This document shows, one piece after another, positions 13,508 through 27,677 of a stretch of DNA of 32,000 nucleotides. The stretch is from the NCBI GenBank assembly GCA_963691715.1, contig OY829281.1, forward strand, positions 426,286 to 458,285. The letters are read 5' to 3'. The DNA is from Balneolaceae bacterium (GTDB lineage: Bacteria > Bacteroidota > Rhodothermia > Balneolales > Balneolaceae). Each line of letters begins with the position of its first letter. Positions within the stretch are counted from its first letter, which is position 1. Below the pieces are notes generated by a model. That model searched no databases. It had not been told where the DNA came from and saw only the letters and a list, made by a program, of their open reading frames with translations. Made by a program: the position numbers and the translations under genes.

Positions 13508-13546
13508 AATGTGACCGCTTTGTTATAAATAGCGATCACATTTTTT
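13508..13546 (+). terminator. Putative intrinsic terminator after pdhC
   Basis: AATGTGACCGCT (13508-13519) pairs with AGCGATCACATT (13531-13542) with one mismatch around an 11-nt loop, followed by a T-run to 13546. It abuts the stop of the convergent motB-like gene. Confidence 0.45.
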
Positions 13547-15380
13547 ACGGTCTATACTCTAAGGTAAAAATTACTGGATTGGTATTGAAAGAAAGGGCTT
13601 TGATTTGATTTAACCTTGCTTGAGTGTTGGATAAACTAGATGTTTGGCTAGTCATCACAGAATAAGCACCATTCAAATTCTCTACACGTGTATTAATTCC
13701 TGTGGCTGTTTGAATTTCTAGAGCTAAATTGTTTGCAGCACTGTTGTTTGAAAACACATTGACTTGAATTTGATAGGCATAGTTGTAGTTAAATACAGTT
13801 TCTGGTTGATGACGAATGAATAGATTAACTTTGAAATCCAAATTTCTGTATTCACTAAGTTTTTCCAATACTTCATTTCTTGTATTATATGGGCCTGTCA
13901 AAATGTTGTATGTATCTGAGATACGATTCATAAAAGCCTGAATATTGTGTTTATCAAATAGTTCCATCATAAATTCGGAACCATTTGATCTATTTTGGAA
14001 CGCACCAAATTGAATAAGGTATTTAACTGGTTTTGGCCTATTTATGGTGTTATTGTAGCATTGGTGTAGAACATATACGTCTGAATCTTTTAAAGTATTA
14101 GAGATTACTTTATGACGGTTTAATACGGTTGAAAATGATTGAACAGCATTAGTTCTTATGGAATAATTATTGCCGTTGTAAGTAAGTATAACCGGATCAG
14201 AAATTTTATTTTCTATTTCTGAGGCCTCTTTAAATGCAGATTGCAGAAGAGCAAACTCTCCTAACTGAAGAGAAAACTGACAACGCGCATCCACCTTAAG
14301 TAATGAAGGTATTGTACTAGGTATTTCTTCAGTCTTTGTAGGTGTCTCTAATACTGGTTCGATGTTAGGCTTACTTTCCTTTAAAGGTTTAGATTCTACT
14401 TCCAGTTTGTTTATAGATTGATTCTCAACTTCCTCTAAAGGCACATCTAAATTTAGTTGGTCTTGTTGTACATTATTGTTAGAGGTTTCGGTTTCTTTTT
14501 TTACTTCTTCTATTTTGTTCTGATCAACTAAAGTAACAATAGCTGGTTGATCTGCTAAAACTATTAAATTTCCATCATCAGGATTTTTTAAAGAAGGCTC
14601 AATAGATATATCGTTTTCTAAAGTATCGAATACTATAATTTTAGAATCTTCACTTTCCTCTAGATTTTCTTGATTAACTAAATTCTCAGATGAATAATAA
14701 AGTCTAAGAACCACTCGTCGGTTGGTTTCTTTACTTGCAGCGAATGGATATCCTAAAGAATCGTAGTCAATTACTGGTCTAGAATCTGCATAGCCAGAGG
14801 CTTTTAATCTTCTAGCGGGTATTCCCATGTCATTAAAATATTTAACAATATTAGCAGCTCTAGCAGTTGAAAGTTCCCAGTTTGATGGATATATAGATGA
14901 TTGAATAGGTGTGTTATCTGTATGTCCCTCTATGTCAATATTAAAATCATTGTATTGTAATTGCTGCATAGAAATTAGCACTCGATCGAGCAGATCTTCA
15001 GATCCAGCTTGTAATTTTGCTTCGCCAGAACTATAAAGATCATCACTTTTAAATCGTATTCGAAGATCATTTAAATCTCTTATGATTTCAAGAGAACCAG
15101 CTTCAATTTCAGATTTCAATAGGATAACTAATTCTTCTTGTATATTTCCAATAGGGGTTGTGAAATATTCAGTTTGATCCGCCAATTTGCCAAAAATAGA
15201 AGATAAGGACGAGAATTCTGATTTTGTAATTTGGGACAGCGATAAAAGTATAATTAAGAAACCTAAAACAATAGTTATAATATCGAGATAGCTAACCTGC
15301 CAATTATTGTCTTCTTCTTCTTCATAATCTTGAATAGGAAAAAGGGAATGCTTAATGATTATAGGTTCTTTTTTTTTCAC
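13545..15380 (-). CDS. MotB/PomB-like stator subunit with OmpA-like peptidoglycan-binding domain and three C-terminal SPOR-like repeats
   Basis: N-terminus NNWQVSYLDIITIVLGFLIILL matches the MotB TM helix (W-x-x-x-Y-x-D) and includes the conserved Asp. OmpA-like core IEGHTDNTP...SNWELSTARAANIVKYF...ASGYADSRPV...NRRVVL. After an acidic linker come three ~75-aa units with the SPOR pattern (FSLQLGEF..., YLIQFGAFQNRSNGSEF...YNILTGPYNTRNEV..., YQIQVNVFSNNSAANNLA...AYSVMTSQ...). Confidence 0.8.
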   Translation of the reverse strand: MKKKEPIIIKHSLFPIQDYEEEEDNNWQVSYLDIITIVLGFLIILLSLSQITKSEFSSLSSIFGKLADQTEYFTTPIGNIQEELVILLKSEIEAGSLEIIRDLNDLRIRFKSDDLYSSGEAKLQAGSEDLLDRVLISMQQLQYNDFNIDIEGHTDNTPIQSSIYPSNWELSTARAANIVKYFNDMGIPARRLKASGYADSRPVIDYDSLGYPFAASKETNRRVVLRLYYSSENLVNQENLEESEDSKIIVFDTLENDISIEPSLKNPDDGNLIVLADQPAIVTLVDQNKIEEVKKETETSNNNVQQDQLNLDVPLEEVENQSINKLEVESKPLKESKPNIEPVLETPTKTEEIPSTIPSLLKVDARCQFSLQLGEFALLQSAFKEASEIENKISDPVILTYNGNNYSIRTNAVQSFSTVLNRHKVISNTLKDSDVYVLHQCYNNTINRPKPVKYLIQFGAFQNRSNGSEFMMELFDKHNIQAFMNRISDTYNILTGPYNTRNEVLEKLSEYRNLDFKVNLFIRHQPETVFNYNYAYQIQVNVFSNNSAANNLALEIQTATGINTRVENLNGAYSVMTSQTSSLSNTQARLNQIKALSFNTNPVIFTLEYRP

Positions 15381-15392
15381 AATTGAAAGAAA

Positions 15393-16190
15393 TTAAATCA
15401 TATTTCTATTTCTTCGCATATGAGCCTGTAATCGGTCGTATATTTGAAGAGCAGATTTATTCTCTTCAATCAGTACTATTCCTTCTAATATTAATTTCTC
15501 TCTGAAGTAACGTAAGGAAGCAACATTATTCATTTTTTTTGCCATAGGCGTAAAAATGAAATTGCCAATTAAAATGCCATAAAGGGTTGTCATCAATGCA
15601 GCACCAAGTCCTGATAAAAGAGATTCAACCTCACTAAATCCTGATAAAATTACTATTAAACCAAAAAGTGTCCCCAACATACCAAAAATTGGTGATGTTT
15701 TACCCATACTTGCTATAATCTGGTTTACTAATTGTTGCCTAGTATAATTTTCTTCAATATTAATTTCACCTAACTCTCTTAAATCTTCGGTGGAATAATT
15801 GGTATCTAAAATTGAAAATAGATACCCTTCGAATCTATCGTTATATTCTTCGCTTAATGAAGTAACTGCGGCATATTTATCTTTTTTGATCATTTTTTGC
15901 CAATCCATTACCCGTTGTATATCCGACTCTAGTACATCAGGAGTGATCGTACTGTATGAAAATAATTTTGAACTTTCTAACAGAGCTTTTAACACACTAT
16001 TAAATGGATAACTAATAAATACACTTGCAGTAATACCCCCAAATACAATAGCTAAACTGGGTAAATTCAAGAATTCAAATCGAGAAGGTATAAGCTCGTA
16101 TTCAGTAAAGCCAATTACTAATAAAGCTCCCCAAACTAGAATTAACAATGAGATTAAAAAACATAGTAAGTTGAGAACTGAAGTTCGCAT
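15393..16190 (-). CDS. MotA/PomA-type proton (ion) channel stator subunit
   Basis: Four predicted TM helices in a 2 + long cytoplasmic loop + 2 topology. TM3/TM4 motifs SPIFGMLGTLFGLIVIL and AALMTTLYGILIGNFIFTPMAKKM match the MotA_ExbB family signature. At 265 aa it has no long C-terminal tail. The gene lies 12 nt upstream of the motB-like gene. Confidence 0.85.
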   Translation of the reverse strand: MRTSVLNLLCFLISLLILVWGALLVIGFTEYELIPSRFEFLNLPSLAIVFGGITASVFISYPFNSVLKALLESSKLFSYSTITPDVLESDIQRVMDWQKMIKKDKYAAVTSLSEEYNDRFEGYLFSILDTNYSTEDLRELGEINIEENYTRQQLVNQIIASMGKTSPIFGMLGTLFGLIVILSGFSEVESLLSGLGAALMTTLYGILIGNFIFTPMAKKMNNVASLRYFREKLILEGIVLIEENKSALQIYDRLQAHMRRNRNMI

Positions 16191-16196
16191 GAGTTA

Positions 16197-16733
16197 TTAA
16201 AATGCTTTATTTAAATTTTCATCAATAAGTCCATTAGCTTGTAATTGCTGAATTACATACGCAATAACAGGGATTGGTACATCAGGATCCATTTCAAGAG
16301 CTGTGCGCCACTGGTTAACAAATTCTTCCATATATCCTAAACCAAGATAAATACTTCCCCTCAGAGCTATAACATCGGCATTTTCTTTGATAAGTGCTGC
16401 ACGATTTATCAAAAGCAAAGCATTTTCGAAATCACCAACATATAAATTTTGTTGTGCTAAGATATAGTAATTACTTAATGTATTAGCTTGATCTTGATAT
16501 TGAGCATACATTTCATCTTTATATATTTTTGTCAATGAATTTCTAAGTTCTTCTTCTCTTTCTTGTGCTTCTGCTATGCTATCCGCCTTGGCTTTGGCAA
16601 GAGTTTGTTTTTGTATTTCATCCTCCGTTACCGAAATTATTTGCGGGTTTTCTTCTGATATATCAGATGTAGCAACACAATTAATCTGAATTATAAAAAT
16701 AAGTGATACAACTATTCTGAATTCTATACTCAT
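16197..16733 (-). CDS. Secreted or lipid-anchored TPR protein
   Basis: N-terminal hydrophobic signal ending ..IIQINC|VATS (possible lipobox-like Cys). A coiled, charged segment. Then two TPR-like repeats (YYILAQQNLYVGDFENALLLINRAALI..., ALRGSIYLGLGYMEEFVNQWRTALEMDPD). This module is paralogous to the C-terminal tail of the 962-aa protein. Confidence 0.55.
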   Translation of the reverse strand: MSIEFRIVVSLIFIIQINCVATSDISEENPQIISVTEDEIQKQTLAKAKADSIAEAQEREEELRNSLTKIYKDEMYAQYQDQANTLSNYYILAQQNLYVGDFENALLLINRAALIKENADVIALRGSIYLGLGYMEEFVNQWRTALEMDPDVPIPVIAYVIQQLQANGLIDENLNKAF

Positions 16734-16739
16734 AATGAA

Positions 16740-18566
16740 TTATCTTTGTTGTGAGCGGGTAGCATTTTTTCTGATTGCATTCATTAGTTGAGATTTGGCA
16801 TATTCTGTTTCAGATATACTTAGATCCCTAAGTTCATTTAATTCCATTTTAAGTAAACGTTGTTCTCTTTTTGGTCGAGTAGAAATAATTTTTTCTATTA
16901 CATCATCATCAAGTCCAACGATTGCATCTAGTAAGGTTTCAGTATTGAAAGAACTTACCGACTGTTTAATAATTTCTGTATCTAAGTTTACAAGCATATC
17001 TATAGTAATGAAATTCTTATTCAAAATCGCACCTATCACAGACCCCGTTGCTCGTAATTCATCGATATATTGCTTTTGATCAAATACTGGGATTTTTTCT
17101 AAAATTGGGTAAAGGTGTTCTGCACCATACTGTTCACTTTTTTCAGCTTCAACTAAATCCATGGCTTTATCAAATAGGTTGGAAGATATGCTTTGTTGTT
17201 GATCGTTTGTAAGGCTATTTAATGAAGCAATTTTCAACATAATATTAGCTGCAATTTCTTTGTTAAGCTGTTTTAACAAAGATGCAGCAGTTTCTTCTGG
17301 TATATAATTCAAGATAAAGGCACCAGAAAGAGTGTCCTCAGTTTCAAGAAGGGTTAATACATGTCGTTCTGGAATATGGTCGAGAAATTTGAACAAAGAA
17401 AATTTATTTCTTTTTCTTTCAGAGATAGATTGCTTCGACCCTTTGTGTAGCATGGAGCCAAACTCAATAATAAGTTCATTTCTCTGATCGATTGACATTG
17501 GGATGATTTCATTCAATTGATCTGAGATTAATTCATAATCCTCAGGATGTAATTCACGTTTAAGTGTACGTAATAAGTGTTTATCAGTTGCTATTATTAC
17601 ACGTGCTGCTTTTACGGCTCCATTATTTTCTTCGCTTAGCCAATATCTAAAGATCGTAGCCACTTCTTCAGGTGTTTCAAAAAATGAATTAATGATGGCT
17701 TCTTTGTACGTTTCTAGATGGTTTGTTTCATTTTCTAGTATCTTATTGGATTGTATATGATGGTCTCTATGAGAAACATATTCATTTTTGAAAGCTTCTC
17801 TAAAATCTTTGATTGGAATATGTGCGCTTGGTTTATTAATGAGTCGATTAAAAAGTATAGTTAAACCAATTAATAGCATCAATGCTAATGCGGGTATATA
17901 AGTTACAATAGAATTTAAGTCGGATAATGAGGTTTGTGGAGAGAAGTATGAAGCAGTAATCTGCTCTGGTTGCTCAGTATAGTCAGGTATATCTAATTGT
18001 GAAATGTAAATTTCATCTCCTCGATCTCTATTTATTTTAATTGCAATACCCGTAATAAACCTCATTAATTCTAATTGCTTTGCTTTTAATGAAGTATCTG
18101 CATATACATTTACTGTCATATTCACTACACGCAGAGTTTTAATTGTATTTTGATTTACAACCATTTCTGGCTCTGAGTTTAGTGTGCTTTGCGGTTTCCT
18201 ATTCTCTTCTGGTAAAAAAGGAAGACCTGGCATAAATAAATTCTGTTGTGGTCGGGTTCTAGGTGCTGCCTGATTTTGAATAATAGATATAGTTTCCTCT
18301 ACCAATTCTGCGTTGATGCTAACGTCTACAAAGAATTTCTTTCGATCGAAGTAATTTGCAAGAATCTGGATAATTTGAGTGTCATATTGTTGTTCTAGAT
18401 TTGAAACTCTTAATTCTAAAGATTCGGAATTAACAGTACCTGATAATGATTGTGAAAAGCCTAAATTTGCATTAAAAATAAATGAAAAAAATAGTATTAC
18501 AATTAGTGATAAAAAAGATTTATCACATAAAGAAACATTGAACTTTATTTTTAAAAGTTTAGCCAA
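16740..18566 (-). CDS. Membrane protein: FliF-like periplasmic module + TM + full-length FliG-like (N/M/C) cytoplasmic domain
   Basis: TM1 (LSLIVILFFSFIF), then ~190 aa periplasmic, then TM2 (YIPALALMLLIGLTILF), then ~380 aa cytoplasmic. The last 80 aa align position by position with the FliG C-terminal domain as I remember it: T. maritima DDRSIQKVLREVDTRDLALALKGASDELKEKIFKNMSKRAAALLKDELEY..VRLKDVEEAQQKIINIIRRL versus here DTEIIKQSVSSFNTETLLDAIVGLDDDVIEKIISTRPKREQRLLKMELNELRDLSISETEYAKSQLMNAIRKN. The middle domain is also FliG-like (ETEDTLSGAFILNYIPEETAASLLKQLNKEIAANIMLKIASLNSL, cf. EHPQ..A.IL.YL.PE.AA.VL..L..E....V..RIA). The periplasmic part has FliF/YscJ-like stretches (LEQQYDTQIIQILANY..VDVSINAEL; LRVVNMTVNVYAD...ITGIAIKINRDRGDEIYI, cf. 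the FliF ..GfD..RGD.V.V motif). Confidence 0.65.
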   Translation of the reverse strand: MAKLLKIKFNVSLCDKSFLSLIVILFFSFIFNANLGFSQSLSGTVNSESLELRVSNLEQQYDTQIIQILANYFDRKKFFVDVSINAELVEETISIIQNQAAPRTRPQQNLFMPGLPFLPEENRKPQSTLNSEPEMVVNQNTIKTLRVVNMTVNVYADTSLKAKQLELMRFITGIAIKINRDRGDEIYISQLDIPDYTEQPEQITASYFSPQTSLSDLNSIVTYIPALALMLLIGLTILFNRLINKPSAHIPIKDFREAFKNEYVSHRDHHIQSNKILENETNHLETYKEAIINSFFETPEEVATIFRYWLSEENNGAVKAARVIIATDKHLLRTLKRELHPEDYELISDQLNEIIPMSIDQRNELIIEFGSMLHKGSKQSISERKRNKFSLFKFLDHIPERHVLTLLETEDTLSGAFILNYIPEETAASLLKQLNKEIAANIMLKIASLNSLTNDQQQSISSNLFDKAMDLVEAEKSEQYGAEHLYPILEKIPVFDQKQYIDELRATGSVIGAILNKNFITIDMLVNLDTEIIKQSVSSFNTETLLDAIVGLDDDVIEKIISTRPKREQRLLKMELNELRDLSISETEYAKSQLMNAIRKNATRSQQR

Positions 18567-18584
18567 AAGATAGATTTATATATA

Positions 18585-21473
18585 CTAGTCGAATTCACTG
18601 GTATCGATTCCTTGTTCCAATACTTCCATATTTGGTATGTAAAGGTTAGGATTAAATCTCAGCGCTTGTTCCCATTCACGTTGAGCTTGTTCGATATTTC
18701 CTTCAAAATAATAAAAACTTCCCTTTAATGCGTAAGCTTGAGCAGTTTCAAAAAGTTCTAATGATTCACTTACAAATTTAAAAGCTGAATTCATATCTTT
18801 ACTATAAAAGGCGTTTTGAGCTTTTACTATAAGACGTAGTGATGCATCAATTTTGTTAAAAAGTTCTTGGGAATATTCTAAGATTTGAGGAGAGGCTTTA
18901 ATTTGTTCAGTTATTCGTTCTATAGCTAGAATGCTAGCACTATCTTCAACACTCTCTTCTGTCTCTTTCAAAGGTAATAAAGTAAAATTTAGCCCTTCTA
19001 TAAAATCGCCACTTGGCGTAATTTTTATCTCAAATTCAATGGCTTCTGGTTCCGATTTTGAATCTAAAAGTTCTAATTGAGCAGGATCAATCTCTAGTAT
19101 ATATTTTCCTGGTGCGATGGGATATTCATAAAAGCTACCATCCGAAAATGTTCTTAATTCTTTAGTTTCGTTTTCTCCAATTTTACGTAAAAGAACTTTT
19201 AAGCCACCAATACCTTTTGTTACATTATCTTCATATTGTCGCTCCACTATTCCCTCCATCACACCACTTGTATTAAATGGTATTTGAATCAACTTAAAAC
19301 TATTAGGGTCTGTGATAATAGAAAATTCTTCATATTCAGGCACTAACATAGGATTCGAAATCGTCGATGTGTTTATACCCATATTATAGCGGTAGTATGA
19401 AAGTAACTGAGTGTAGTAGAGCACCCCATTTTTATAAAAAGATTGTGCCCCTCCACGCCCAAGTCTAAGTTTTGCATCAGGTAGTAAATCATCCCCGCTA
19501 TTATAAAGCCCATTTGAATCATTATCTATAAATAGCTGTATAGCAGCTCCCGATTTACCAACTTGATTTCTACTAGTTAATATGAAATGATTAAAGTTTG
19601 AATCATATCCTATCGAGCCTCTTACATTTTGAGTTATATTGTAAGAATCACGTATCGTAGAAAATGTAGAATTACTCCTTATTTTTTTTAAATCTATTAT
19701 AAAATTTACCCTTGCTGAGGTATAATTTTGCTGGAAATTCCGACCTATTGATGCTTGTAATCTCCCTACCTTAAATACATTTTTTGAGAATAAAAATTCA
19801 CCAGATTCTATTTTATCATCTGATAATCGATATCTAGACTGAGCTCTCAAGAAAGTACCTCTTAAAAGGGGAGGGATATTTGGGTTTTTGGATACAGTAA
19901 AGGTAGCCGAAGCATCAATCACACCAGTATCACTAGATGTAAAGGGATCAAATGTATCTATCAAACGATCAGAATACCCAAGTCGAATACTCATTTTTTT
20001 TATCCGTGTACTCACATCAAATCGCTGAGTATTTGTTAATACATTCTGTCTTACGCGAATAAAATTTGAAATTCGAAGATTTAAAGGAAGTTTGAAAAAT
20101 TTAGCAGGATAAAATATAGAGGATAATATTTGACGGGAGTTATTCGAAGAATTAAAAATACTTTCACCACCATAATACTCGGTAACATCAATATTGAAAC
20201 TTGCCGTATTTGGATAGATCACATTCAAATTTGAACGAACGTAAGCGTCTGATACTCCTTCGATCGTAAATATATAGTTTTTCGAAATTCTTGATGAGAT
20301 GGAAGCAGTATAGAAGGGTTCATTTTTACCAATCTCTTCAGAATAATATTCAACTCCAAAACGCGCACTTAACCATTTTGTAAGCCCATATGAAATATTA
20401 CCTTGTATTGTTCTATTCCTAATTGTAGAACCGATTAATGGATTATCCAATACTCCTGCATTAAAACGATAGTCGAGTTTACCCTTTGGCACAAAATTGA
20501 AGGGAACTTGTACTCGAGTTGTTCGGGTGATCAATTGACCAGTTGGCCCATAAATTTTTAAATCTAGTTGAGACGACCCATAGTTTAGAGGAGCTAGAAA
20601 TCTATAGTCCCCGATTTCGTTGGCTAATTGATAATCGATCAATCCATTATTTAAATACAGCTCAACTTCTGATAAAGGAATTGTAGTGCCCTTAATTTCA
20701 AATTCATCAAAAAATCGACGTGGCTCCACTGGATCATTAGTAATACGTAGCCCAGTATACTGAGCTCCATATACTCCATCTAAAGGAGACTGACCCAATG
20801 ATATTGAACTGATCCATGGTGTATCTCGTATAAGTGTTTTCCATCTTAAATTATCTGTTTCAAGTACAGAGGCATCAGTATTTGAATTTCCAAATATATT
20901 TCCTTGTAGATCACCACCAAGCACCTGTACTCCAAAGGAACCACTGTAACTTAATGATTGTACTTCAGGTTGTATGTTGCTTGAAAAAGCATAATCAAAA
21001 AACCCTCCATCCAAAATAGTTCTTTCTCTTCCTTTTCGTAATTGAAAATATGTTACTTCATTTGATTTATTCGATATACGTCTTTTATTTTTTCGTAAAC
21101 TACGCTCAACAACGGGTAATTCAACATCAGTAGTTAAGTCAAGGCTCAAGTTATTAATATCAACAGAAAATTCTAGGCCAAAGACGGAACGGAAAAAAGC
21201 AGGTGTAAAATGAAAATCAAGGTCTGTTAAATAATAATCGCTAGATGTTAAAGGATAATCAAAACCATCAAAATTAGCCAATTGCCGAGTAAAATCAATC
21301 GTATATGAAGTTTGTTCAAATCCAAATTTTCCAGATATTTCTAAACCATCTACATTCGATTGCAACTCTAGGATATTGAATAATTCTAGCATAGGAAGAT
21401 AGAACTGCTCCCCATCGTAATAAGTAATAACTACGGTATTTACTACCCCTCGATACCTAAAGTCAAGATACAC
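18585..21473 (-). CDS. Fimbrial usher-like outer-membrane protein with carboxypeptidase-regulatory-like domain and C-terminal TPR tail; 5' end unresolved
   Basis: EIKGTTIPLSEVELYLNNGLIDYQLANEIGDYRFLAPLNYGSSQLDLKIYGPTGQLITRTTRVQVPF matches the conserved usher stretch (FimD: GIARTQAQVTIKQNGYDIYNSTVPPGPFTIDDIYAAGNSGDLQVTIKEADGSIQTLYVPY). It is followed by ~500 aa of alternating, beta-barrel-like sequence, GGLKVLLRKIGENETKELRTFSDGSFYEYPIAPGKYILEI (CarboxypepD_reg-like), and a TPR tail. The ORF track starts at GTG 21473, but a signal-peptide-like sequence is encoded in frame upstream of it (see findings). Confidence 0.55.
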   Translation of the reverse strand: MYLDFRYRGVVNTVVITYYDGEQFYLPMLELFNILELQSNVDGLEISGKFGFEQTSYTIDFTRQLANFDGFDYPLTSSDYYLTDLDFHFTPAFFRSVFGLEFSVDINNLSLDLTTDVELPVVERSLRKNKRRISNKSNEVTYFQLRKGRERTILDGGFFDYAFSSNIQPEVQSLSYSGSFGVQVLGGDLQGNIFGNSNTDASVLETDNLRWKTLIRDTPWISSISLGQSPLDGVYGAQYTGLRITNDPVEPRRFFDEFEIKGTTIPLSEVELYLNNGLIDYQLANEIGDYRFLAPLNYGSSQLDLKIYGPTGQLITRTTRVQVPFNFVPKGKLDYRFNAGVLDNPLIGSTIRNRTIQGNISYGLTKWLSARFGVEYYSEEIGKNEPFYTASISSRISKNYIFTIEGVSDAYVRSNLNVIYPNTASFNIDVTEYYGGESIFNSSNNSRQILSSIFYPAKFFKLPLNLRISNFIRVRQNVLTNTQRFDVSTRIKKMSIRLGYSDRLIDTFDPFTSSDTGVIDASATFTVSKNPNIPPLLRGTFLRAQSRYRLSDDKIESGEFLFSKNVFKVGRLQASIGRNFQQNYTSARVNFIIDLKKIRSNSTFSTIRDSYNITQNVRGSIGYDSNFNHFILTSRNQVGKSGAAIQLFIDNDSNGLYNSGDDLLPDAKLRLGRGGAQSFYKNGVLYYTQLLSYYRYNMGINTSTISNPMLVPEYEEFSIITDPNSFKLIQIPFNTSGVMEGIVERQYEDNVTKGIGGLKVLLRKIGENETKELRTFSDGSFYEYPIAPGKYILEIDPAQLELLDSKSEPEAIEFEIKITPSGDFIEGLNFTLLPLKETEESVEDSASILAIERITEQIKASPQILEYSQELFNKIDASLRLIVKAQNAFYSKDMNSAFKFVSESLELFETAQAYALKGSFYYFEGNIEQAQREWEQALRFNPNLYIPNMEVLEQGIDTSEFD

Positions 21474-21562
21474 CTCAAAATGATCTTCATCTTGGGCAAA
21501 GGAATTAGTGACAAAGCACAGAGAAAAAACTATAAAAAAAAAAGACTTTTTTTCAAGTAAAC

Positions 21563-22399: not shown

Positions 22400-22463
22400 T
22401 TACACAAATGGTTCAGTTTAAATGCTCAATTACAAGAAATATAAATATAGTTTTTTATAAAAC

Positions 22464-22497
22464 TATAAAAAAACCCCTTCCTTAGGAAGGGGTTTGG
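22464..22497 (-). terminator. Rho-independent terminator after the 176-aa fimbrial subunit gene
   Basis: On the minus strand the sequence reads AAACCCCTTCC-TAA-GGAAGGGGTTT followed by TTTTTATAG. The stem is GC-rich in an AT-rich genome (core CCCCTTCC/GGAAGGGG, 22474-22481 and 22485-22492) and starts about 18 nt after the stop at 22515. Confidence 0.8.
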
Positions 22498-22514
22498 AAA
22501 GAATTGATTTGTTT

Positions 22515-23045
22515 TTATTGATAAACAAAGGAAACTGATAAGTCTGAGCCACCAGTAAGGTTAGTGGAGTAAACACCATTAGCTTGGCTTGCATCCACAC
22601 CTAGCGAACCACCTATATCTAAGGTAATTTGTCCGTCTGATGATACATCTTGAAATTTTATTACTGTTGTTCCGCTAGTTACCTGGTCTCCACCAACCCA
22701 AATGTCTGGTGTGAATGTCATAGAATTAGAGCCACCATCAGAAAGTGTAGCAGTGGTGAATGTTGCAATTACTTCTGCACCTATAACACCGTCAGATAAT
22801 AAAATTCTTCCTGGGGATGCACCATTACCAACATCTACGCTTACAGCGTCATTTCCATTTGCAGCAAGATTTGGAGAAGTATTAGCTGTTATGCTACCAA
22901 ATTCAACTGCTGTAGTTGTGATGGTTAAAGAGGTAGTAACAGTTGCATTAACATCTACGGTTGTACTTTCGTCCTGCGCATTCACAGTTGGGATAATTAA
23001 AATTGAAAGTAAGAATACCGGTATTAATTTTAATAAATTTTTCAT
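22515..23045 (-). CDS. Secreted DUF4402/SCPU-like (Csu-type) fimbrial subunit, probable major subunit
   Basis: Signal peptide ..PTVNA|QDE. Thr/Ser/Gly/Val-rich beta-strand sequence with the layout I associate with DUF4402: VDVNATVTTSLTITTTAVEFGSI...(core)...ITLDIGGSLGVDASQANGVYST...SVSFVYQ. It has its own 95-nt upstream spacer and a strong terminator downstream. Confidence 0.6.
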   Translation of the reverse strand: MKNLLKLIPVFLLSILIIPTVNAQDESTTVDVNATVTTSLTITTTAVEFGSITANTSPNLAANGNDAVSVDVGNGASPGRILLSDGVIGAEVIATFTTATLSDGGSNSMTFTPDIWVGGDQVTSGTTVIKFQDVSSDGQITLDIGGSLGVDASQANGVYSTNLTGGSDLSVSFVYQ

Positions 23046-23140
23046 GGTTTTATCTATTGTGATTTTTGTTTTTTTTAAAGTTATTTAATGTCTTTTGTAT
23101 TTCCTAGTTAAAAACTCTTAATTAAAATTGTTTAAGTTTA

Positions 23141-23674
23141 TTAATCGAACTCTATTTGTAAGATAATATCTCCACTGTATTCACCTAAGGCAATATTGCC
23201 CACAGTGATTGAGCCAAACACATATATATAGACCGACTTCCAAACTTCGGATGATGCATTCTCAGTTGTATTAGTGTTTGATTGCACAGGTAAATACCCC
23301 GTATTGTTTGGAATGATGGTAGCTAATTCTGTCTTATTTGTACCGCTGTTATTGTAAGCAATAGACATTTCAATGGGAATTTGGTCTACAACAGTGGGGT
23401 TGGGATGGGTTAAAGCAGGAGGATAATCTAAGCTGACAAAAATACTTTGTGTGTGGTATGCCTTAATGTTAAATACTCCCATACCCATATCGCCTAGCCC
23501 TACTGCGAATGAGCCTGAATTAGCTGCTAAATCCCCAAAACTAAAATCGCTCTCCACAGAAGCACTTAACTCGGGTTCTATGGTAATCTGTAGATTTAGA
23601 AATTGTGCACTTAAATCTAAAATATTAAAGTGTACGATCAATGCTATGTATAAAAATTTAATCATAGCTGACAC
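23141..23674 (-). CDS. Secreted DUF4402/SCPU-like fimbrial subunit paralog
   Basis: Signal peptide. ..FSFGDLAANSG.. near the N-terminus. C-terminus VFGSITVGNIALGEYSGDIILQIEFD shares the G-x-Y-x-G-x-(I/F)-x-(I/L)-x-(I/V)-x-(Y/F) ending with its neighbours. The gene overlaps the upstream gene by 17 nt (8 nt if the second Met is used). Confidence 0.5.
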   Translation of the reverse strand: MSAMIKFLYIALIVHFNILDLSAQFLNLQITIEPELSASVESDFSFGDLAANSGSFAVGLGDMGMGVFNIKAYHTQSIFVSLDYPPALTHPNPTVVDQIPIEMSIAYNNSGTNKTELATIIPNNTGYLPVQSNTNTTENASSEVWKSVYIYVFGSITVGNIALGEYSGDIILQIEFD

Positions 23675-24263
23675 TTATGTTTATTGTACCCATGTAACTT
23701 CCGCTAACTAGATTGCCGGTTGTTGTAACGGTAGGATAAATATAAAGATAAGCAGTATCATTATATAAAGAAGGGTTATATCCTTCAAATACAGGAGTTG
23801 GTGGTGGTCCTGGGGGGGTATTTCCACCTTTATTACGAATTGGAAATAATGCATTTGCGGTGGAACCTACTACCAAAAAATTAATGGCATGATCGGTATT
23901 ATCTTGTCCTAAGTTAGCGTAAGCAGCTCTTAGATTGAGGGGTAAACGTCGAGTTGGATCATTTTGGTTGTTTGGATCGTCGTCCAGTAATAAATGGGAA
24001 TCAGCAATTATTTCAACAAATACGTCTAAATATTCTACTCCTTCAATCGAAAAAACTTTAGAGTCTTGAATATCAATAGCCGTAGTTTCCCCAGCTTGGT
24101 CAATAATTATACCAAAATCTAATGCACTACCCGGATTAACCTCAGACAAAATAACAGAATATTGTGAACTATAGCTGCCAAAATCAATTTCCTGACTGAT
24201 AAGGTATTTGTTGTTCAAAAAAGTCATGAGTAGTAAAAGTATATACGTATTAAACCTCTTCAT
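23658..24263 (-). CDS. Secreted DUF4402/SCPU-like fimbrial subunit paralog with Pro-rich insert
   Basis: Signal peptide. ..LDFGIIIDQAG.. near the N-terminus. GGNTPPGPPPTP insert. C-terminus YIYPTVTTTGNLVSGSYMGTINISVSYD carries the shared motif. Its start overlaps the stop of the upstream gene by 1 nt. Confidence 0.5.
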   Translation of the reverse strand: MKRFNTYILLLLMTFLNNKYLISQEIDFGSYSSQYSVILSEVNPGSALDFGIIIDQAGETTAIDIQDSKVFSIEGVEYLDVFVEIIADSHLLLDDDPNNQNDPTRRLPLNLRAAYANLGQDNTDHAINFLVVGSTANALFPIRNKGGNTPPGPPPTPVFEGYNPSLYNDTAYLYIYPTVTTTGNLVSGSYMGTINISVSYD

Positions 24264-24757
24264 TAGATGTAATCGATCTCTATCGTAAAATCGCCTTCAT
24301 AGTTCCCTGGTTCTGCGTTTTCAAGATTTAATACACCACCTAACCAGATATAAAATGTACCTTCATTGTTAAAGCGTAGATTTCTATTTTGATATTGAAT
24401 TATATCAGAAGTAGATTGATCATCTATAGTATTACCTGAAAGTTCATATCTGAATGTTAAATAACCTGGGCCCTCTATTCTGTCTAGCCTTTTCTCTAAA
24501 TCATAATCTAATCTAAATTCGGCTTCGGGTGTACCTAGAGCAACCATATGCCCTGAATTGAGGTCATTAATTGGATTAATTGTGATGATAACTTGGCCAG
24601 GTTGAGTATTTTCTAAACTTAATGGATTTACAGTTATTAATTCTATTGATTGTGTAACTTCAGCATTTATATTGAGTTGAGCACTAACAGAGGTGTCGTC
24701 CTGAGCAATGGTTGAGGAAGGAATCAAGAAAAATATTATAAGAATCAGTAATCTCAT
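24263..24757 (-). CDS. Secreted DUF4402/SCPU-like fimbrial subunit paralog
   Basis: Signal peptide MRLLILIIFFLIPSSTIA|QDD. VSAQLNINAEVTQSIELITVNPLSLEN... C-terminus FYIWLGGVLNLENAEPGNYEGDFTIEIDYI closely follows the DUF4402-type ending (..vGGtL.v...q..G.Y.G.f.vtv.Y). Confidence 0.55.
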   Translation of the reverse strand: MRLLILIIFFLIPSSTIAQDDTSVSAQLNINAEVTQSIELITVNPLSLENTQPGQVIITINPINDLNSGHMVALGTPEAEFRLDYDLEKRLDRIEGPGYLTFRYELSGNTIDDQSTSDIIQYQNRNLRFNNEGTFYIWLGGVLNLENAEPGNYEGDFTIEIDYI

Positions 24758-24846
24758 TAAATACGTGTGTTTAGCTAAAATTAATACTTAGTATAAACTA
24801 AGCCAATTAATCTTCTTTAATGTGTTTAGCGTTGAATTAAACATAA

Positions 24847-25245
24847 CTACCATGCAAATGCGTTGAAATATATAGGATCTAGATTAACTTCACGATTTTG
24901 AAGTTGGATTGCTCTTGGCATTGCCTCTTCTTCTTTTATGAAATTGATCATCATTTCAAAATTATACTTGAGCATATTATTACGGAATCTAGGGGAAAAA
25001 CGAATAGTTATTGAATAAATGCTGTCTATAGGTTCTTCATCTAGTAAGTAATAAGGATTGGGTGTATTTATTGGATAAAGATCTCCAATAATTTTGATAT
25101 TGTCTCTGCCTGGAATAAAAGTACTGTCTTCCAATTGAGGTTTCAAATTTACATTAAAAGTAATTTCAGTAGATTGTGCTTGTGCATTAAAAATGCACCA
25201 CATACTGATATAAAAAATAAAAAGTAAAGGCTTGAATTGATTCAT
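24847..25245 (-). CDS. Small secreted protein, CBM20-like/Ig-like beta-sandwich (tentative)
   Basis: Signal peptide ..IFNAQA|QST. ITFNVNLKPQ...FIPGRDNIKIIGDL....LLDEEPIDSIYSITIRF......LKYNFEM loosely follows the starch-binding-domain pattern (v.F.v......G..v.vvG.......l......W...v.l......YKy). Function unknown. Confidence 0.3.
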   Translation of the reverse strand: MNQFKPLLFIFYISMWCIFNAQAQSTEITFNVNLKPQLEDSTFIPGRDNIKIIGDLYPINTPNPYYLLDEEPIDSIYSITIRFSPRFRNNMLKYNFEMMINFIKEEEAMPRAIQLQNREVNLDPIYFNAFAW

Positions 25246-25248
25246 CGT

Positions 25249-26664
25249 TTAATCTTGTAAATGTGTTACCTCATCTTTCCAATAGACAATTGAAAAGACG
25301 CTTTCTCTTGGAAATGAAGGAGGGATGGAAGCCTTTAATCTGTTATCATATTGGTAGTTTTTAGAATATCCAGAATATATGTTAGATATGCTTCCAGTTC
25401 CAACAGGGCCTCTATTATTTTGAATAAGCCCCCCTAAGATATTTAATGTACCTCTGTAGCAACAAACGTTAAAATTTTCAACTGAAAATGAATCATTTAG
25501 AGCCATAACAGATGCATGTATTGTTAAATCTTCTTGACCTGAAAATAAATGAGCTTGATCGTCAACTTGAACTTCCCCTTCACTCACTAAGCCTAACATA
25601 TCAGTACTAGAAGAGTCTACCATTGGGTTGGTATGGTAGGTTATATCTCCATCTATTTCTATAAAAGACTCAGAATGTAAAGTGATACTGCCTTTTACTT
25701 CCCCGTGAACGTCAACTCGTTCAGAAGTTGAAATAATCCCATTAATTGTACTTAAGTCATACTCAACAGGATCGCCCCATACATCGTTAATTTTTTCTGA
25801 AATACTAGCATACCCTACATCATCAGATTCATAAAATGTAACATTAATTTCGTTCTCGAATCTTAGTCCGCCATTTTCAGCTGATTCTTTAATACGACCT
25901 ACCTCATAAGTAGTTGGTTCATTTTTTGAAGGTGCATTAAAGTTTTCTCCACCATAAAAATTTGGATTAGTTGGATACCACCAATGAGCCCTCCACATAT
26001 TAGGACTTGTAATAAGACCATAGAAGGAGGGATCTCCAAACATAGAAAACTCTCCATTCGTATGGATAGGGCCGTGTATCTCGTCATCTGGAGCAAACCA
26101 AATAGTATAACCTTGCGAACTTAATTCGGATTGCGTCATGTAAGAATATTTAGAAAAAGAGTCTCTCTGCATTAAAACCTCGGTTGTGATTTGTGTATCG
26201 TCATAAATGGCGGTACTCATAAGTAAAACTTTATATTCATCCCAACTAGTTACGCTATTATCTGGAATATCAGGACTATTTTGAGTATAAATATTTAATA
26301 TTCCATTCATATAAACTCTACTACCAATTTCACCACTGTTTTGTAAAGCTGCCTCGATATTTTTAAGCTCATCAAGTGTTATCTCTCCAAGGGTATATTG
26401 TTTTCTTGCATTGTAAGATCTTGCATGTAAGGCTAAAGTATCCACAACACTCCCAACAGGAATGCTACCAACCCAATCATTATCATTTTTAATAGTTTCT
26501 ATGGCATTATCAATGAGTGATTTAGATATATTCCTAGCTTGTTCTTCATTATAAAATTTAGATGAAAGATCAGGAATCTCGGAAATACGTTTGGAATTAT
26601 TAATTTGGATTAATCCCGTTATAATTGTTAAACCACTAACTAAAAGTAATAGACTTCTTCCCAT
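25249..26664 (-). CDS. PilX-like protein (N-terminal hydrophobic anchor, large beta-rich C-terminal domain)
   Basis: N-terminus MGRSLLLLVSGLTIITGLIQ followed by ..EEQARNISKSLIDNAIETIK resembles the PilX_N pattern (hydrophobic helix, then A..~AEAGl~~a). The C-terminal end GTLNILGGLIQNNRGPVGTG....GYSKNYQYDNRLKASIPPSFP resembles the G.l.i.Gsli......YD.rl....PP.fp ending of PilX/DUF4900-type type-IV-pilus tip proteins. There is no Gly-Phe-Thr-Leu-Ile-Glu prepilin motif. Confidence 0.4.
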   Translation of the reverse strand: MGRSLLLLVSGLTIITGLIQINNSKRISEIPDLSSKFYNEEQARNISKSLIDNAIETIKNDNDWVGSIPVGSVVDTLALHARSYNARKQYTLGEITLDELKNIEAALQNSGEIGSRVYMNGILNIYTQNSPDIPDNSVTSWDEYKVLLMSTAIYDDTQITTEVLMQRDSFSKYSYMTQSELSSQGYTIWFAPDDEIHGPIHTNGEFSMFGDPSFYGLITSPNMWRAHWWYPTNPNFYGGENFNAPSKNEPTTYEVGRIKESAENGGLRFENEINVTFYESDDVGYASISEKINDVWGDPVEYDLSTINGIISTSERVDVHGEVKGSITLHSESFIEIDGDITYHTNPMVDSSSTDMLGLVSEGEVQVDDQAHLFSGQEDLTIHASVMALNDSFSVENFNVCCYRGTLNILGGLIQNNRGPVGTGSISNIYSGYSKNYQYDNRLKASIPPSFPRESVFSIVYWKDEVTHLQD

Positions 26665-26673
26665 AGTATTTTA

Positions 26674-27258
26674 TTAATAAGGTAAATTAATATTATTAGG
26701 TACAAATATTCTTTTCCAGATTAATCGAGGATATTGTACGTTGTCTTTATTTATGGAGTAAGGTTCTGCTGTTTCTATAATAATTTCAACTTCAACTTTT
26801 TTCACTGCAGATTTATCCGAAGTGACAATCCCGTTTGCTGTGAAATAGGTGATTTCAAAATGAACAACTGGAAAGGAGATGGTCGCATATTCATCGGTAT
26901 CAATTGGGCCGATGCGTTTTAAGAAGAAATCATTAGGATTCGATGAAGATGTAACTGGATCTGAGGTGTCGAATAGCCATTGTACATTGGTAGAGCCGAA
27001 ATTATCATTATCAAAAACGTCAGCTTGGAATATGATATTTTTACTATCAATTGTAGAAAATGGAACAGCATTACCTGTTTTAAAACCAATTTTACTAAAA
27101 TCATTATCTAACATTTCTACTAAATTACCTAATGAATTATGATTTAGTGAACTAAGAAGTAATTCATGGCTTTGGTTCACCACTTGGTTGTTAAAAGCGA
27201 GGATTGATATAAGAAATAACCCACCTATTATAAATGTTATAGTAATTGCAGAATTCAT
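26674..27258 (-). CDS. PilW/PulJ-like minor-pilin-like protein (non-canonical N-terminus)
   Basis: N-terminal hydrophobic helix AITITFIIGGLFLISILAF. LVEMLDNDFSKIGFKTGN resembles the PilW ..l..Dlr.aGy.. segment. At 194 aa it is 9 nt upstream of the PilX-like gene and overlaps the preceding gene by 1 nt. Confidence 0.35.
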   Translation of the reverse strand: MNSAITITFIIGGLFLISILAFNNQVVNQSHELLLSSLNHNSLGNLVEMLDNDFSKIGFKTGNAVPFSTIDSKNIIFQADVFDNDNFGSTNVQWLFDTSDPVTSSSNPNDFFLKRIGPIDTDEYATISFPVVHFEITYFTANGIVTSDKSAVKKVEVEIIIETAEPYSINKDNVQYPRLIWKRIFVPNNINLPY

Positions 27259-27677
27259 TAATAGCTATATGACTTTACATATTCCAAATTAATAAAAATA
27301 TCAGGAGTTACTTGTTGGTTTAATACCGAGATCACCACTTGGTACCGTTTCATTGTGCCTGTGTCTTCTATCAAATCTGAGGTGCCACTAATTATGAAAG
27401 TACTTGTGTATTGATCGTTGTTGCCATAAGATTGTGTTTCAATAATTGGATAATTTGCATATACGTAGCTTGCACTGTTTGGATTTAAATCATTGGGATC
27501 ATAAATCCATTGTACTTTATCTAGTTCGTCTTGAGCTACTGCAATGGCTCTACTTTCGGCTTCTGCTATATAAAGAGTTTGTCTAGAGTTATTGAAACTT
27601 TTCGCAGTATTTAAGCTTAAGAACGAAAATACTACCATTGCAGCGATCAAATATAATATTTCAGAGTAACTTGTCAT
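27258..27677 (-). CDS. PilV/GspI-like minor-pilin-like protein (non-canonical N-terminus); first gene of the cluster
   Basis: MTSYSEILYLIAAMVVFSFLSL is a pilin-like N-terminal helix with Glu at precursor position 6 (position 5 if only Met1 is removed), but there is no Gly at -1 and no leader peptide. It is followed by YIAEAESRAIAVAQDELDK, as in small minor pilins. Length 139 aa. Confidence 0.35.
   Translation of the reverse strand: MTSYSEILYLIAAMVVFSFLSLNTAKSFNNSRQTLYIAEAESRAIAVAQDELDKVQWIYDPNDLNPNSASYVYANYPIIETQSYGNNDQYTSTFIISGTSDLIEDTGTMKRYQVVISVLNQQVTPDIFINLEYVKSYSY

Follow-up and report, generated by a model that had tools for sequence, protein, structure and literature searches.

Non-flagellar, proton-driven motors that move or serve surface structures are known from the GldLM/PorLM machinery of the T9SS and from Agl-Glt gliding, and we know of no FliG rotor in any of these machineries. 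Known chaperone-usher systems, to our knowledge, contain neither an inner-membrane nor an energy-transducing component. Those of the archaic type form pili that 'self-secrete' (PMC9452303). Within the Balneolaceae, flagellar genes are found in some members (Aliifodinibius), and Balneola vulgaris is described as flagellated (PMC9909488, PMC5167729). The locus described here, found in marine Balneolaceae and contained in a stretch of 32,000 nucleotides from a Balneolaceae bacterium (the window), encodes a FliF-FliG rotor protein and a MotAB stator beside a chaperone-usher system, an arrangement of which we found no published description in the literature. It would share with the T9SS and gliding machineries a non-flagellar, proton-driven motor, and a large T9SS-sorted surface protein is encoded beside it, but it contains no GldL/M, GldK/N or Glt homologues and retains a FliG rotor.

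Results

All 14 open reading frames between positions 13545 and 27677 of the window are encoded on the minus strand, as are all features described below, and they are co-directional, in agreement with the sequence-only reading, which had described a single same-strand block with these gene boundaries. From the usher gene to motB, the intervals range from 6 to 18 nt (18 nt between the usher and FliFG genes, 6 nt between FliFG and the TPR gene, 6 nt between the TPR gene and motA, and 12 nt between motA and motB), and a terminator scan of the window detected no terminator between these genes. A Pfam scan of the window found no flagellar genes besides those of FliFG, MotA and MotB, as the sequence-only reading had stated, and no rod or bearing genes.

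The rotor protein FliFG (16740–18566, 608 residues) contains a first transmembrane segment (13–34), a periplasmic ring-building domain (47–191), a second transmembrane segment (219–243) and a cytoplasmic FliG part (278–607). Its proposed kinship to FliF and FliG is upheld by profile and fold, with Pfam recognizing FliG_N, FliG_M (34.6 bits) and FliG_C (47.7 bits), and the AF2 model matching full-length FliG (Foldseek E 3.5e-9) and the RBM3/S-ring of FliF (E 1.7e-5). Homology shows a minimal FliF, composed of RBM3 and beta-collar, joined to a complete FliG in a ring-forming inner-membrane protein. The model also weakly matches SpoIIIAG in Foldseek, and the protein shares the periplasmic alpha-beta-beta-alpha-beta ring-building motif and long collar strands with the RBM rings of SpoIIIAG and SctJ, which are in contrast found in secretion-like channels and are neither fused to FliG nor served by MotAB. 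The identification of FliFG as simply the flagellar FliG was ruled out, since it is fused to a FliF part and has lost the FliM-binding EHPQR motif. Torque-helix residues R281 and D289 of FliG have conserved equivalents in R567 and E575, and residue comparison found no conservation of the equivalents of K264, D288 and R297. At the tip of the collar, a loop of sequence LPGLP (112–116), which is disordered in the AF2 model, is almost invariant in 73 diverse FliFG proteins. In P0250 and P0290, two groups linked to chaperone-usher genes, FliFG has a periplasmic LysM domain, and Pfam detects no peptidoglycan-binding domain in FliFG of the Balneolaceae.

The MotA-like subunit (15393–16190; Pfam MotA_ExbB 59.7 bits) is of the flagellar type, and its proposed identity holds: its PDB relatives are exclusively flagellar MotA and PomA (E 3e-22 to 2e-9), and neither PDB nor NCBIfam searches found a match to ExbB or TolQ. 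R90 is a lysine or arginine in 41 of 41 orthologues, all of which retain P173, T209 and P222. The MotB-like subunit (13545–15380) comprises an N-terminal transmembrane segment with Asp33, a plug (MotB_plug 30.6 bits), an OmpA-like domain (53 bits), a long linker and SPOR domains at 451–509 and 535–603 (42.5 bits); the equivalent of E. coli Asp32 is kept in all 42 orthologues. When scored one by one, two SPOR segments exceed the Pfam cut-off and a third falls below it, which leaves the suggested MotB-OmpA architecture with two SPOR domains instead of three. In total, the stator carries three peptidoglycan-binding domains (OmpA and SPOR). The main FliG/MotA charge pair, the MotB aspartate and the MotA prolines are conserved.

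In relation to the flagellar motor, the locus thus shares the FliG N/M/C fold, the FliF RBM3/beta-collar fold, MotA and MotB with channel aspartate, plug and OmpA-like anchor, and the main charge pair between torque helix and MotA. It differs by a FliF that is cut to RBM3 and collar in one chain with FliG, by the loss of EHPQR, by the absence of FliM/N, export gate, rod, hook, filament and L/P rings nearby, by SPOR domains on MotB, and by its usher, TPR lipoprotein and DUF4402 neighbours. It could be argued that fliF, fliG and motAB are leftovers from, or spare copies serving, a flagellum encoded elsewhere, as the JGI label of the 608-residue family, 'flagellar motor switch protein FliG', and the flagellar genes and flagellated species of the family cited above would suggest. 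We consider this highly improbable, given that the fusion without RBM1/2 and EHPQR is constant over at least 132 clusters from several phyla, and that MotA is 70–92% identical across the Balneolaceae with its functional residues intact. Moreover, no other flagellar gene was found in any fetched FliFG-carrying locus, and the NCBIfam flagellar equivalog cut-offs are all missed by a wide margin, including those of MotD, MotB and MotS, which MotB matches at lower scores.

The outer-membrane usher (18585–21473, 962 residues) is not matched by the usher Pfam profile. Its AF2 model (pLDDT 82) matches FimD and PapC (Foldseek E 2.7e-29 to 3.6e-10, up to 924 columns) and displays an NTD, a plugged barrel and two C-terminal beta-sandwich domains followed by a TPR tail (846–955), within which residues 911–943 match a TPR profile in Pfam. 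At the level of the predicted fold, the protein is confirmed as a genuine usher, in line with its earlier description as a usher-like outer-membrane protein with a TPR tail. The 89 nt that separate its reading frame from the chaperone gene (21474–21562) encode in the usher frame the signal peptide KKSFFFIVFSLCFVTNSFAQ, which resembles those of orthologues, so that the claimed tight spacing stands except for the start codon, which is absent from this frame. A TTG at 21556–21554 is out of the usher frame across an A7 run (21553–21547) and a T10 run (21543–21534), a tract that is unchanged in two other assemblies, both differing from the window by SNPs.

The weakly supported candidate for a PapD-like chaperone (21563–22399) is a periplasmic protein with a signal peptide and two beta domains. 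PapD_N matches weakly, being sub-threshold in 7 of 21 orthologues, the comparison with E. coli FimC, SfmC, YehC and YadV yields an hhalign probability of only 26% with 135 columns in register, and no sequence match was found in the PDB. Between this gene and the last subunit gene, an intrinsic-terminator-like hairpin with an 11-bp stem and a T run (22471–22495) substantiates the terminator predicted near 22464–22497; of 39 related loci, 38 have a hairpin and T run at the equivalent position, their stem sequences differing. The four DUF4402 subunits suggested previously were recovered at family level, where 48 of 76 members match (best E 7e-11), the matches in the window's own proteins being weak. 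Subunit 1 (24263–24757) and subunit 4 (22515–23045) match Pfam DUF4402 with E 4e-4 and 6e-4, respectively, whereas subunit 2 (23658–24263), the longest with a proline-rich insert, and subunit 3 (23141–23674) are assigned at family level; a C-terminal G.Y.G....I.Y motif is common to subunits 1, 2 and 3. Subunit 4 is the least conserved (about 35% identity among orthologues) and its location directly before the terminator makes it a candidate for the major subunit. The locus shares with chaperone-usher pili (FimD/PapC; archaic Csu/CupE, PMC9452303, PMC4654587) the domain organization of the usher, the csu gene order, in which small secreted subunits with a common C-terminal motif precede the chaperone-like and usher genes, and the terminator behind the subunit genes. 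It differs by the TPR tail of the usher, a chaperone barely recognizable as PapD-like, and DUF4402 subunits for which a PDB search found no sequence similarity to CsuA/B.

Further upstream, a small secreted protein of 132 residues (24847–25245; signal peptide, no Pfam match) and three N-terminally anchored proteins of 471 (DUF4900), 194 and 139 residues (25249–27677) are accessory and missing from Balneola-type loci. The latter had been called pilin-like, of which their hydrophobic anchors and nothing else were found, save the DUF4900 domain. Upstream of them lies a conserved 15th neighbour on the same strand, a giant surface protein with Invasin_D3 and a T9SS C-terminal sorting domain (27880–31962; Pfam), which is present in Balneolaceae and Gracilimonas.

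The small TPR lipoprotein (16197–16733) shows weak TPR matches in Pfam and a lipobox cysteine that is also found in its orthologues. BLAST cross-matches to usher C-termini at 29–38% identity identify this protein and the usher tail as paralogues. Every motor-adjacent usher compared, in the window and in loci L042, L044, L046 and L058, carries a TPR tail, and L046 has no separate TPR gene, its TPR residing solely on the usher. The usher of Gracilimonas sp. Q87, which has no adjacent motor, contains no TPR and has a SPOR domain of its own instead.

The gene order is identical in 37 Balneolaceae loci or genomes, which by itself is weak evidence since the housekeeping flanks (PDH, alaS) are likewise syntenic. 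However, the block of TPR-tailed usher, FliFG, TPR protein (where present), MotA and MotB is found again in no fewer than three distant lineages (L042, L044/L058 and L046), with unrelated flanking genes and a FliFG of only about 22% identity, and the linkage on whose conservation the earlier claim was staked thus extends beyond the family. The motor module is far more common than this pairing (132 clusters at E<1e-30, with an Elusimicrobiota MAG among them), and its usual partner elsewhere is not a chaperone-usher system but an outer-membrane protein of about 357 residues, with a TPR lipoprotein also present. Conversely, the Gracilimonas locus contains the fibre genes with no motor adjacent.

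Discussion

The presence of either module on its own could indicate that a self-sufficient adhesive chaperone-usher fibre and a FliFG/TPR/MotAB motor with another job are independent neighbours, as would the fact that chaperone-usher pili require no inner-membrane energy (PMC9452303) and the broad collinearity of Balneolaceae genomes around the locus. Yet we regard this as unlikely, in light of the recurrence of the adjacency in distant lineages with different flanks, the close spacing without terminators, the confinement of the usher's TPR tail to loci where a motor adjoins, its relationship to the TPR protein of the motor module, and the situation in L046. We instead lean towards a non-flagellar, ion-driven FliG/MotAB motor that is coupled via TPR adaptors to a partner in the outer membrane, which at this locus is a pilus usher. 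The pairing of the motor with differing outer-membrane proteins fits such a role, and the separate occurrence of motor and fibre modules points to a general envelope motor with the usher as an adopted partner. The earlier idea of a co-opted rotor and stator is therefore retained with respect to the recurring linkage to the usher, but not as a device dedicated to pilus assembly.

In the mechanism that we propose, two separable modules, the motor (FliFG and MotAB) and the chaperone-usher DUF4402 fibre, would act together. Flagellar-type stators resembling MotA5B2, fixed to peptidoglycan by the OmpA and SPOR domains of MotB, would act on the FliFG ring, and the chaperone-usher system, of which usher and subunit family are well and the chaperone weakly defined, would build the fibre. 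Owing to the conserved terminator behind the subunit genes, the genes for assembly and motor may be expressed less strongly. Both the TPR tail of the usher and the TPR lipoprotein could dock on a flexible crown of LPGLP loops atop the FliF-like collar. Ions passing through MotAB would then rotate the FliG ring, or exert a turning force on it, and the resulting mechanical work would be passed on to the usher-fibre complex. Since the fibre probably self-assembles like other chaperone-usher pili, the motor most likely acts on the assembled organelle or the usher gate, and we infer that it may rotate, wind or gate the fibre; twisting or repositioning are conceivable as well, whereas supplying energy for polymerization appears less likely. 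Observations counted against a motor-usher machine are the occurrence of the modules apart, the non-conserved equivalents of FliG K264, D288 and R297, the weak chaperone and the missing in-frame start codon of the usher in this strain. A further one is that the locus encodes no rod-like element that would cross the peptidoglycan and carry torque to the outer membrane.

This last feature, together with the lack of bearing genes, would be accommodated if the FliFG ring were largely static and MotAB exerted a pull or limited twist via the TPR adaptors, as in TonB or Tol-Pal, to open the usher plug, to release the fibre or draw it back, or to tether the outer membrane where cells divide. With Tol-Pal and TonB-ExbBD, the locus shares an inner-membrane ion-driven motor of the MotA/ExbB family, an OmpA-like peptidoglycan binder, a TPR protein (cf. 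CpoB) and an outer-membrane barrel partner, and its TPR lipoprotein and outer-membrane partner recall the Tol-Pal/CpoB layout. The SPOR and OmpA anchors are compatible with such force transduction, and in P0250 and P0290 the periplasmic LysM domain of FliFG would tether the 'rotor' to peptidoglycan, which argues against free rotation in these two groups. However, the stator is of the flagellar type and the coupler is a FliG ring instead of an extended TolA- or TonB-like protein. The torque helix of FliG is paired, in all known cases, as rotor with flagellar-type MotA as stator; rings of the RBM3/collar fold are free, and Balneolaceae FliFG has no peptidoglycan-binding domain, compared to three on the stator. 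We thus assign a low probability to a static ring and prefer a motor in which FliFG serves as rotor. The pairing of FliFG and MotAB with an usher may represent a novel type of cell-envelope machine powered by ions.

Results

The central component of the block is the 608-aa protein FliFG (window 16740–18566, minus strand), whose proposed resemblance to FliF and FliG is borne out by both profile and fold. Its sequence matches the Pfam families FliG_C and FliG_M with 47.7 and 34.6 bits, each over cut-off, and YscJ_FliF_C below cut-off. An AF2 model built from 35 homologues (pLDDT 74) contains a transmembrane helix (residues 13–34), a periplasmic domain of alpha-beta-beta-alpha-beta topology with two strands of 22–24 residues and a disordered loop between them, a second transmembrane helix (219–243) and an all-helical cytoplasmic part. 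When this model is compared to the PDB with Foldseek, it matches full-length FliG over 310–335 columns (8wiw_3, E 3.5e-9; 3hjl, E 4.4e-8), with the three armadillo-like domains N, M and C and the C-terminal torque helix all found, and separately its periplasmic part matches the RBM3/beta-collar of FliF (S-ring) in more than 15 entries (7d84_A, E 1.7e-5; 6sd1_A, TM-score 0.57). Because of these two separate matches, the protein is, as judged from its predicted fold, a fusion between a minimal FliF and a complete FliG. A search for the complete RBM1-RBM2-RBM3 set between the two transmembrane helices revealed a single RBM with long collar strands.

The conservation of functional residues in the FliG part is selective. 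The equivalent of FliG R281 (R567) is found in 35 of 35 Balneolaceae proteins, and among 84 distant members it is an arginine in 76 and a lysine in 7 more. The equivalent of FliG D289 is a glutamate (E575) in all 35 Balneolaceae, and the positions corresponding to the torque-helix residues K264, D288 and R297 are not conserved. The FliM-binding EHPQR motif is absent, with only E125 (E410 in FliFG) being kept, H, P and Q being replaced and R160 corresponding to lysine or histidine, and no gene for FliM or FliN is found in the 32-kb window. With 51.5 bits, the protein does not reach the cut-off of 226.7 of the FliG equivalog model TIGR00207 of NCBIfam. The disordered loop at the tip of the collar, which spans 35 residues, carries the sequence LPGLP (residues 112–116), which is near-invariant in 73 diverse family members. 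In the same 73 proteins, which are otherwise 17–23% identical to the protein of the window, an RGD sequence (residues 182–184) is near-invariant as well. Both are candidates for partner-binding and ring-interface motifs. In two groups of usher-linked relatives, the periplasmic N-terminal part of FliFG contains a LysM domain (32–73 in P0290, 52–94 in P0250 and 69–111 in P0253). Two 331-aa proteins, P0339 and P0360, were considered as canonical FliG controls and dropped, as they carry RPxRE instead of the canonical MSxRAA torque-helix motif; they look like short, unfused FliG-only members of the same non-flagellar family.

The stator identity of the two distal gene products is equally upheld. 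The 265-aa protein matches Pfam MotA_ExbB and the 611-aa protein scores above the Pfam cut-offs of MotB_plug, OmpA and SPOR. Two SPOR domains score when the segments are tested separately, whereas the first candidate segment scores nothing, which leaves two of the three SPOR domains that had been assigned to MotB. In the PDB, the sequences matched by MotA at E ≤ 0.01 are all flagellar MotA or PomA (10 of 10, E 3e-22 to 2e-9). Neither ExbB nor TolQ is among them and GldL and ZorA are likewise not closest, and the sequence of the A subunit thus does not place it with the ExbBD, TolQR, GldLM, AglRQS and ZorAB motors. Similarly, only flagellar stator models of NCBIfam are found for MotA and MotB, with every equivalog cut-off missed by far. 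In alignments of the orthologues with MotA and MotB of E. coli MG1655, the channel aspartate Asp32 of MotB is conserved in 42 of 42 proteins and P173, P222 and T209 of MotA in 41 of 41, all of which contain either lysine or arginine at position 90, and the position of E98 is taken by a serine with a conserved glutamate directly next to it. Across Balneolaceae loci, MotA is 70–92% identical, FliFG only 36–67%.

On the side of the fibre, the 962-aa protein that had been described as an usher-like outer-membrane protein with a TPR tail is an usher by its predicted fold. Its AF2 model (pLDDT 82) shows an N-terminal domain, a large barrel plugged by an inserted beta-sandwich, two C-terminal beta-sandwiches corresponding to CTD1 and CTD2, and a TPR tail (846–955). 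The top 19 Foldseek matches are FimD or PapC (E 2.7e-29 to 3.6e-10, up to 924 columns), with the first non-usher following at 1e-8, and Pfam Usher finds no match in this protein and a weak one in the usher of a distant relative (L046). The 278-aa product of the preceding gene, a secreted, two-part beta protein, is a plausible but unproven PapD-like chaperone. Of 21 orthologues, 7 show sub-threshold matches to PapD_N (best E 0.0029), which together with an in-register alignment of 135 columns with four E. coli chaperones in hhalign (E 7e-4) argues for this assignment, whereas the probability of this alignment is only 26% and the family profile finds no match among PDB sequences. A T9SS signal in the same protein was rejected, as the Por_Secre_tail matches are incomplete, do not reach the cut-off and lie away from the C-terminus; we read them as generic Ig-fold similarity. 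The four fibre subunits share a C-terminal G.Y.G....I.Y motif, and in subunits 1, 3 and 4 hydrophobic residues alternate downstream of the signal peptide. Their assignment to DUF4402, which may be related to SCPU (Csu type), holds at the level of the family (48 of 76 members, best E 7e-11), whereas the family profile finds neither CsuA/B nor any other pilin in the PDB.

The 178-aa TPR protein and its orthologues carry a lipobox cysteine, and this predicted lipoprotein is paralogous to the TPR tail of the usher. The description of the three upstream proteins as pilin-like extends only to their N-terminal hydrophobic anchors, with DUF4900 in one of them; a type IV pilin identity was dismissed as they occur without a prepilin G/F...E motif and without ATPase or platform genes. 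Balneola-type loci encode neither these three proteins nor the 132-aa protein, all of which are thus accessory. Most predicted signal-peptide cleavage sites (AQ/Q...) of subunits 1–4, the chaperone candidate, the usher and the 132-aa protein (window 21563–27677) are followed by glutamine. This agrees with the 'Q-rule' described for exported proteins of Bacteroidetes (PMC10653852).

The 14 genes were found exactly as proposed, co-directional on the minus strand from 27677 down to 13545, in a window that is AT-rich (G+C about 34%). Their distal part is compact, with gaps of 18 nt between usher and FliFG, 6 nt between FliFG and TPR gene, 6 nt between TPR gene and motA and 12 nt between motA and motB. 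The usher frame as called mechanically starts with a GTG at 21473, 89 nt past the chaperone-like gene, and these 89 nt encode, in the frame of the usher, KKSFFFIVFSLCFVTNSFAQ/DEDHFEV, which can be aligned to orthologues across both signal peptide and mature N-terminus. The in-frame signal-peptide coding on which the claimed tight spacing relied is thus present, but the segment lacks an in-frame start codon; a TTG is located one frame off, across runs of A7 and T10 (21534–21556, minus strand). This tract is identical in two assemblies (L051, L052) that both differ from the window by SNPs, which excludes a random sequencing error as its cause. The tract may be explained by a frameshift that became fixed, by phase variation or by expression that depends on slippage.

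A strong hairpin followed by a T run at 22495–22471, between the genes of the fourth subunit and the chaperone candidate, confirms the terminator that had been noted in this region. A hairpin and T run are present at the equivalent site in 38 of 39 loci (in the range L001–L042). Since the position is kept while the stem sequences differ, this suggests a conserved attenuation between subunit genes and assembly and motor genes. Chaperone-usher systems usually require many subunits but few assembly proteins, and a terminator placed behind the subunit genes is in keeping with this.

Upstream of the fibre genes lies a gene for a large surface protein of 1360 aa (27880–31962, minus strand) with Invasin_D3 and a T9SS sorting domain. 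In Balneolaceae, a large T9SS-sorted protein (DUF2341/LamG/Invasin_D3) is always located 5' of the fibre genes (L001 1–3512; L041 1–3797), reaches 2487 aa in relatives and is also present at a Gracilimonas locus without an adjacent motor; in association with the fibre, it might act as an adhesin or be a cargo. Downstream, the block is followed by convergent genes for PDH E2/E1 and alaS. Upstream of alaS, the window also encodes a T9SS-sorted protein with BNR/sortilin-like repeats and a Por_Secre_tail (703–3063) and a stand-alone response-regulator receiver protein (4986–5357), neither of which could be linked to the cluster.

With the FliFG protein as query, 37 genome loci were found, all of Balneolaceae, where the order of subunits, chaperone candidate, usher, FliFG, TPR protein, MotA and MotB is constant wherever the contig reaches. 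As PDH and alaS are also syntenic, conservation within the family is on its own weak evidence for an association. Distant relatives, whose FliFG is about 22% identical to that of the window and whose flanking genes are unrelated, provide the stronger argument. In a 'Bacteroidales' MAG (L042), DUF4402 and 279-aa proteins precede an usher (996 aa), FliFG (618 aa), TPR protein, MotA and MotB. In L046, chaperone-like, DUF4402-like and 272-aa proteins are followed by an usher (983 aa), a LysM-containing FliFG (807 aa), MotA and MotB, and a response regulator and a kinase are encoded directly 3' of motB. In L044 and L058, FliFG directly follows the C-terminus of an usher. A neighbourhood scan of metagenomes contributed one short locus with usher and FliFG. 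The recurrence in L042, L046 and L044/L058 argues against chance juxtaposition, which would have refuted the sequence-only reading.

In every motor-linked case, the usher carries a TPR tail, which in L046 is the sole TPR present, as this locus is without a separate TPR gene. Conversely, at the locus of Gracilimonas sp. Q87 (L041 10001–14188), the terminal usher contains a SPOR domain (1230–1300) and no TPR, and neither FliFG nor MotAB follows it. Since the tail thus covaries with the adjacent motor, the comparison points to TPR as coupling element, and it is consistent with a peptidoglycan anchor on whichever part stays still. Many Gracilimonas ushers are of the SPOR-fused type. A lack of the motor in the entire genus was discarded as a claim, as MotA orthologues with 67% identity are found in G. 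tropica and a Gracilimonas MAG; an adjacent motor is shown to be absent at the Q87 locus only.

The motor extends beyond the usher-linked loci. Among 1.84 billion cluster representatives, a FliFG profile finds 3509 matches at E ≤ 1e-3, of which 132 also reach E ≤ 1e-30; full-length matches (about 600 aa) are frequent. In four loci (L043, L045, L050 and L049, the latter from an Elusimicrobiota MAG), a five-gene module encodes FliFG, a protein of about 357 aa, a TPR lipoprotein, MotA and MotB, and chaperone-usher genes are found in none of them. In the ~357-aa protein, a signal peptide precedes a soluble N-terminal half, followed by a barrel-like, putative outer-membrane C-terminal half that usually ends with an aromatic residue, and the copy of this protein in L049 shows a weak match to FlgO (E 0.009). 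The composition of these usher-less loci would therefore reflect a general design in which a FliG/MotAB motor is combined with a TPR lipoprotein and a partner in the outer membrane, the latter of which, by gene content, is a pilus usher in Balneolaceae and a few other lineages. In L043, cheR is located directly 3' of motB. In L057 (9197–12535), a divergent family member of 635 aa with strong FliG_C and FliG_M matches is flanked by the genes of a TPR protein and of a 207-aa protein, with no MotAB genes nearby. A second MotA paralogue with about 44% identity resides on the same chromosomes as the L039 and L020 loci (P0488, P0500). Since MotAs of this identity share contigs with FliFG genes of the 357-aa-protein type (P0492/P0244, P0495/P0257, P0498/P0262 and P0481/P0254), some Balneolaceae may carry both types of motor module.

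Discussion

By homology, the system combines a ring-building FliF/FliG protein, an intact flagellar-type, peptidoglycan-anchored channel and stator, a real usher and fibre subunits. To our knowledge, the pair of FliG and MotAB has been known solely for generating torque in flagella, and we know of no other 5:2 motor (Ton, Tol, GldLM, Agl, Zor) that works with FliG. With the flagellum, the system shares the FliG rotor and flagellar-type MotAB, but its FliF is reduced to one RBM and the FliM motif is lost. In line with the original description, genes for an export gate, rod, hook or filament are found neither in the 32-kb window nor in the fetched FliFG loci. From its encoded parts, the system would work like a flagellar rotor and stator, but it is not a flagellum, as judged from the truncated and fused FliF, the lost FliM motif, the equivalog cut-offs that are missed and the lack of these genes in all fetched FliFG loci. 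Described chaperone-usher systems share the usher, but none of them has an inner-membrane motor or a TPR-tailed usher. With Tol-Pal, TonB, GldLM and Agl-Glt, the similarity ends at the broad concept of a 5:2 motor that serves the outer membrane. No account of a FliG/MotAB-usher system emerged from full-text literature searches, and 'DUF4402' is not mentioned in the literature searched. Of filament-less rotor proteins, a survey from 2025 says no more than that they 'could have an alternative function' (PMC12199754).

The proposal that a rotor/stator pair was co-opted for a fibre-assembly platform is thus supported in the identities of the components and their linkage, whereas its mechanism is unproven and its scope is broader than thought. 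We lean slightly towards the view that motor and usher-fibre form one functional machine. In such a machine, the stators would turn, or load, the FliG ring, and the LPGLP loop at the collar tip would dock to the TPR lipoprotein, the tail of the usher, or both, passing mechanical work to the outer-membrane partner. This docking is proposed because a Pro-rich extended peptide is a typical TPR ligand. Chaperone-usher fibres need no energy for their assembly (PMC9452303, PMC4654587), and at the Q87 locus the fibre genes occur on their own. Polymerisation would therefore be a less probable target of the motor than the usher gate or the completed organelle.

A rod-like element crossing the peptidoglycan was not found, and a LysM domain on FliFG would be difficult to square with free rotation of the ring. 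Because this domain sits on the 'rotor' in two usher-linked groups, its presence argues, for these groups at least, for a variant that works with a limited stroke or as a force transducer. A more far-reaching reading, which we consider improbable, views FliFG/MotAB as a second, flagellum-independent rotary organelle motor that in Balneolaceae spins or winds the usher-assembled fibre as a 'pilus propeller' or rotary winch. Flagella and motility have been reported for Balneola vulgaris in taxonomic work (PMC5167729), and Balneola genomes have been reported to be without flagellar-assembly genes (PMC9909488). As a weak hint, the fibres might be the appendages observed as flagella in this species, and a propeller could account for its reported 'flagella' and motility.

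Collectively, these findings make the system a candidate for an envelope machine of a new kind. If true, a conserved and widespread non-flagellar FliF-FliG/MotAB module would constitute a new class of ion-driven envelope machine. It would supply a function for filament-less rotor proteins and tie an inner-membrane motor to chaperone-usher pili, which were thought to need no such energy, a connection that was not previously described. In a reading related to the propeller and likewise considered improbable, the widespread minimal module of FliF-FliG fusion, outer-membrane protein, TPR lipoprotein and MotAB could represent a simple survivor related to the rotor/stator core out of which the flagellar motor arose. 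Experiments are feasible, as some Balneolaceae are cultured, and a natural minimal rotor and stator with one rotor protein would make the origin and the minimal needs of flagellar torque testable.
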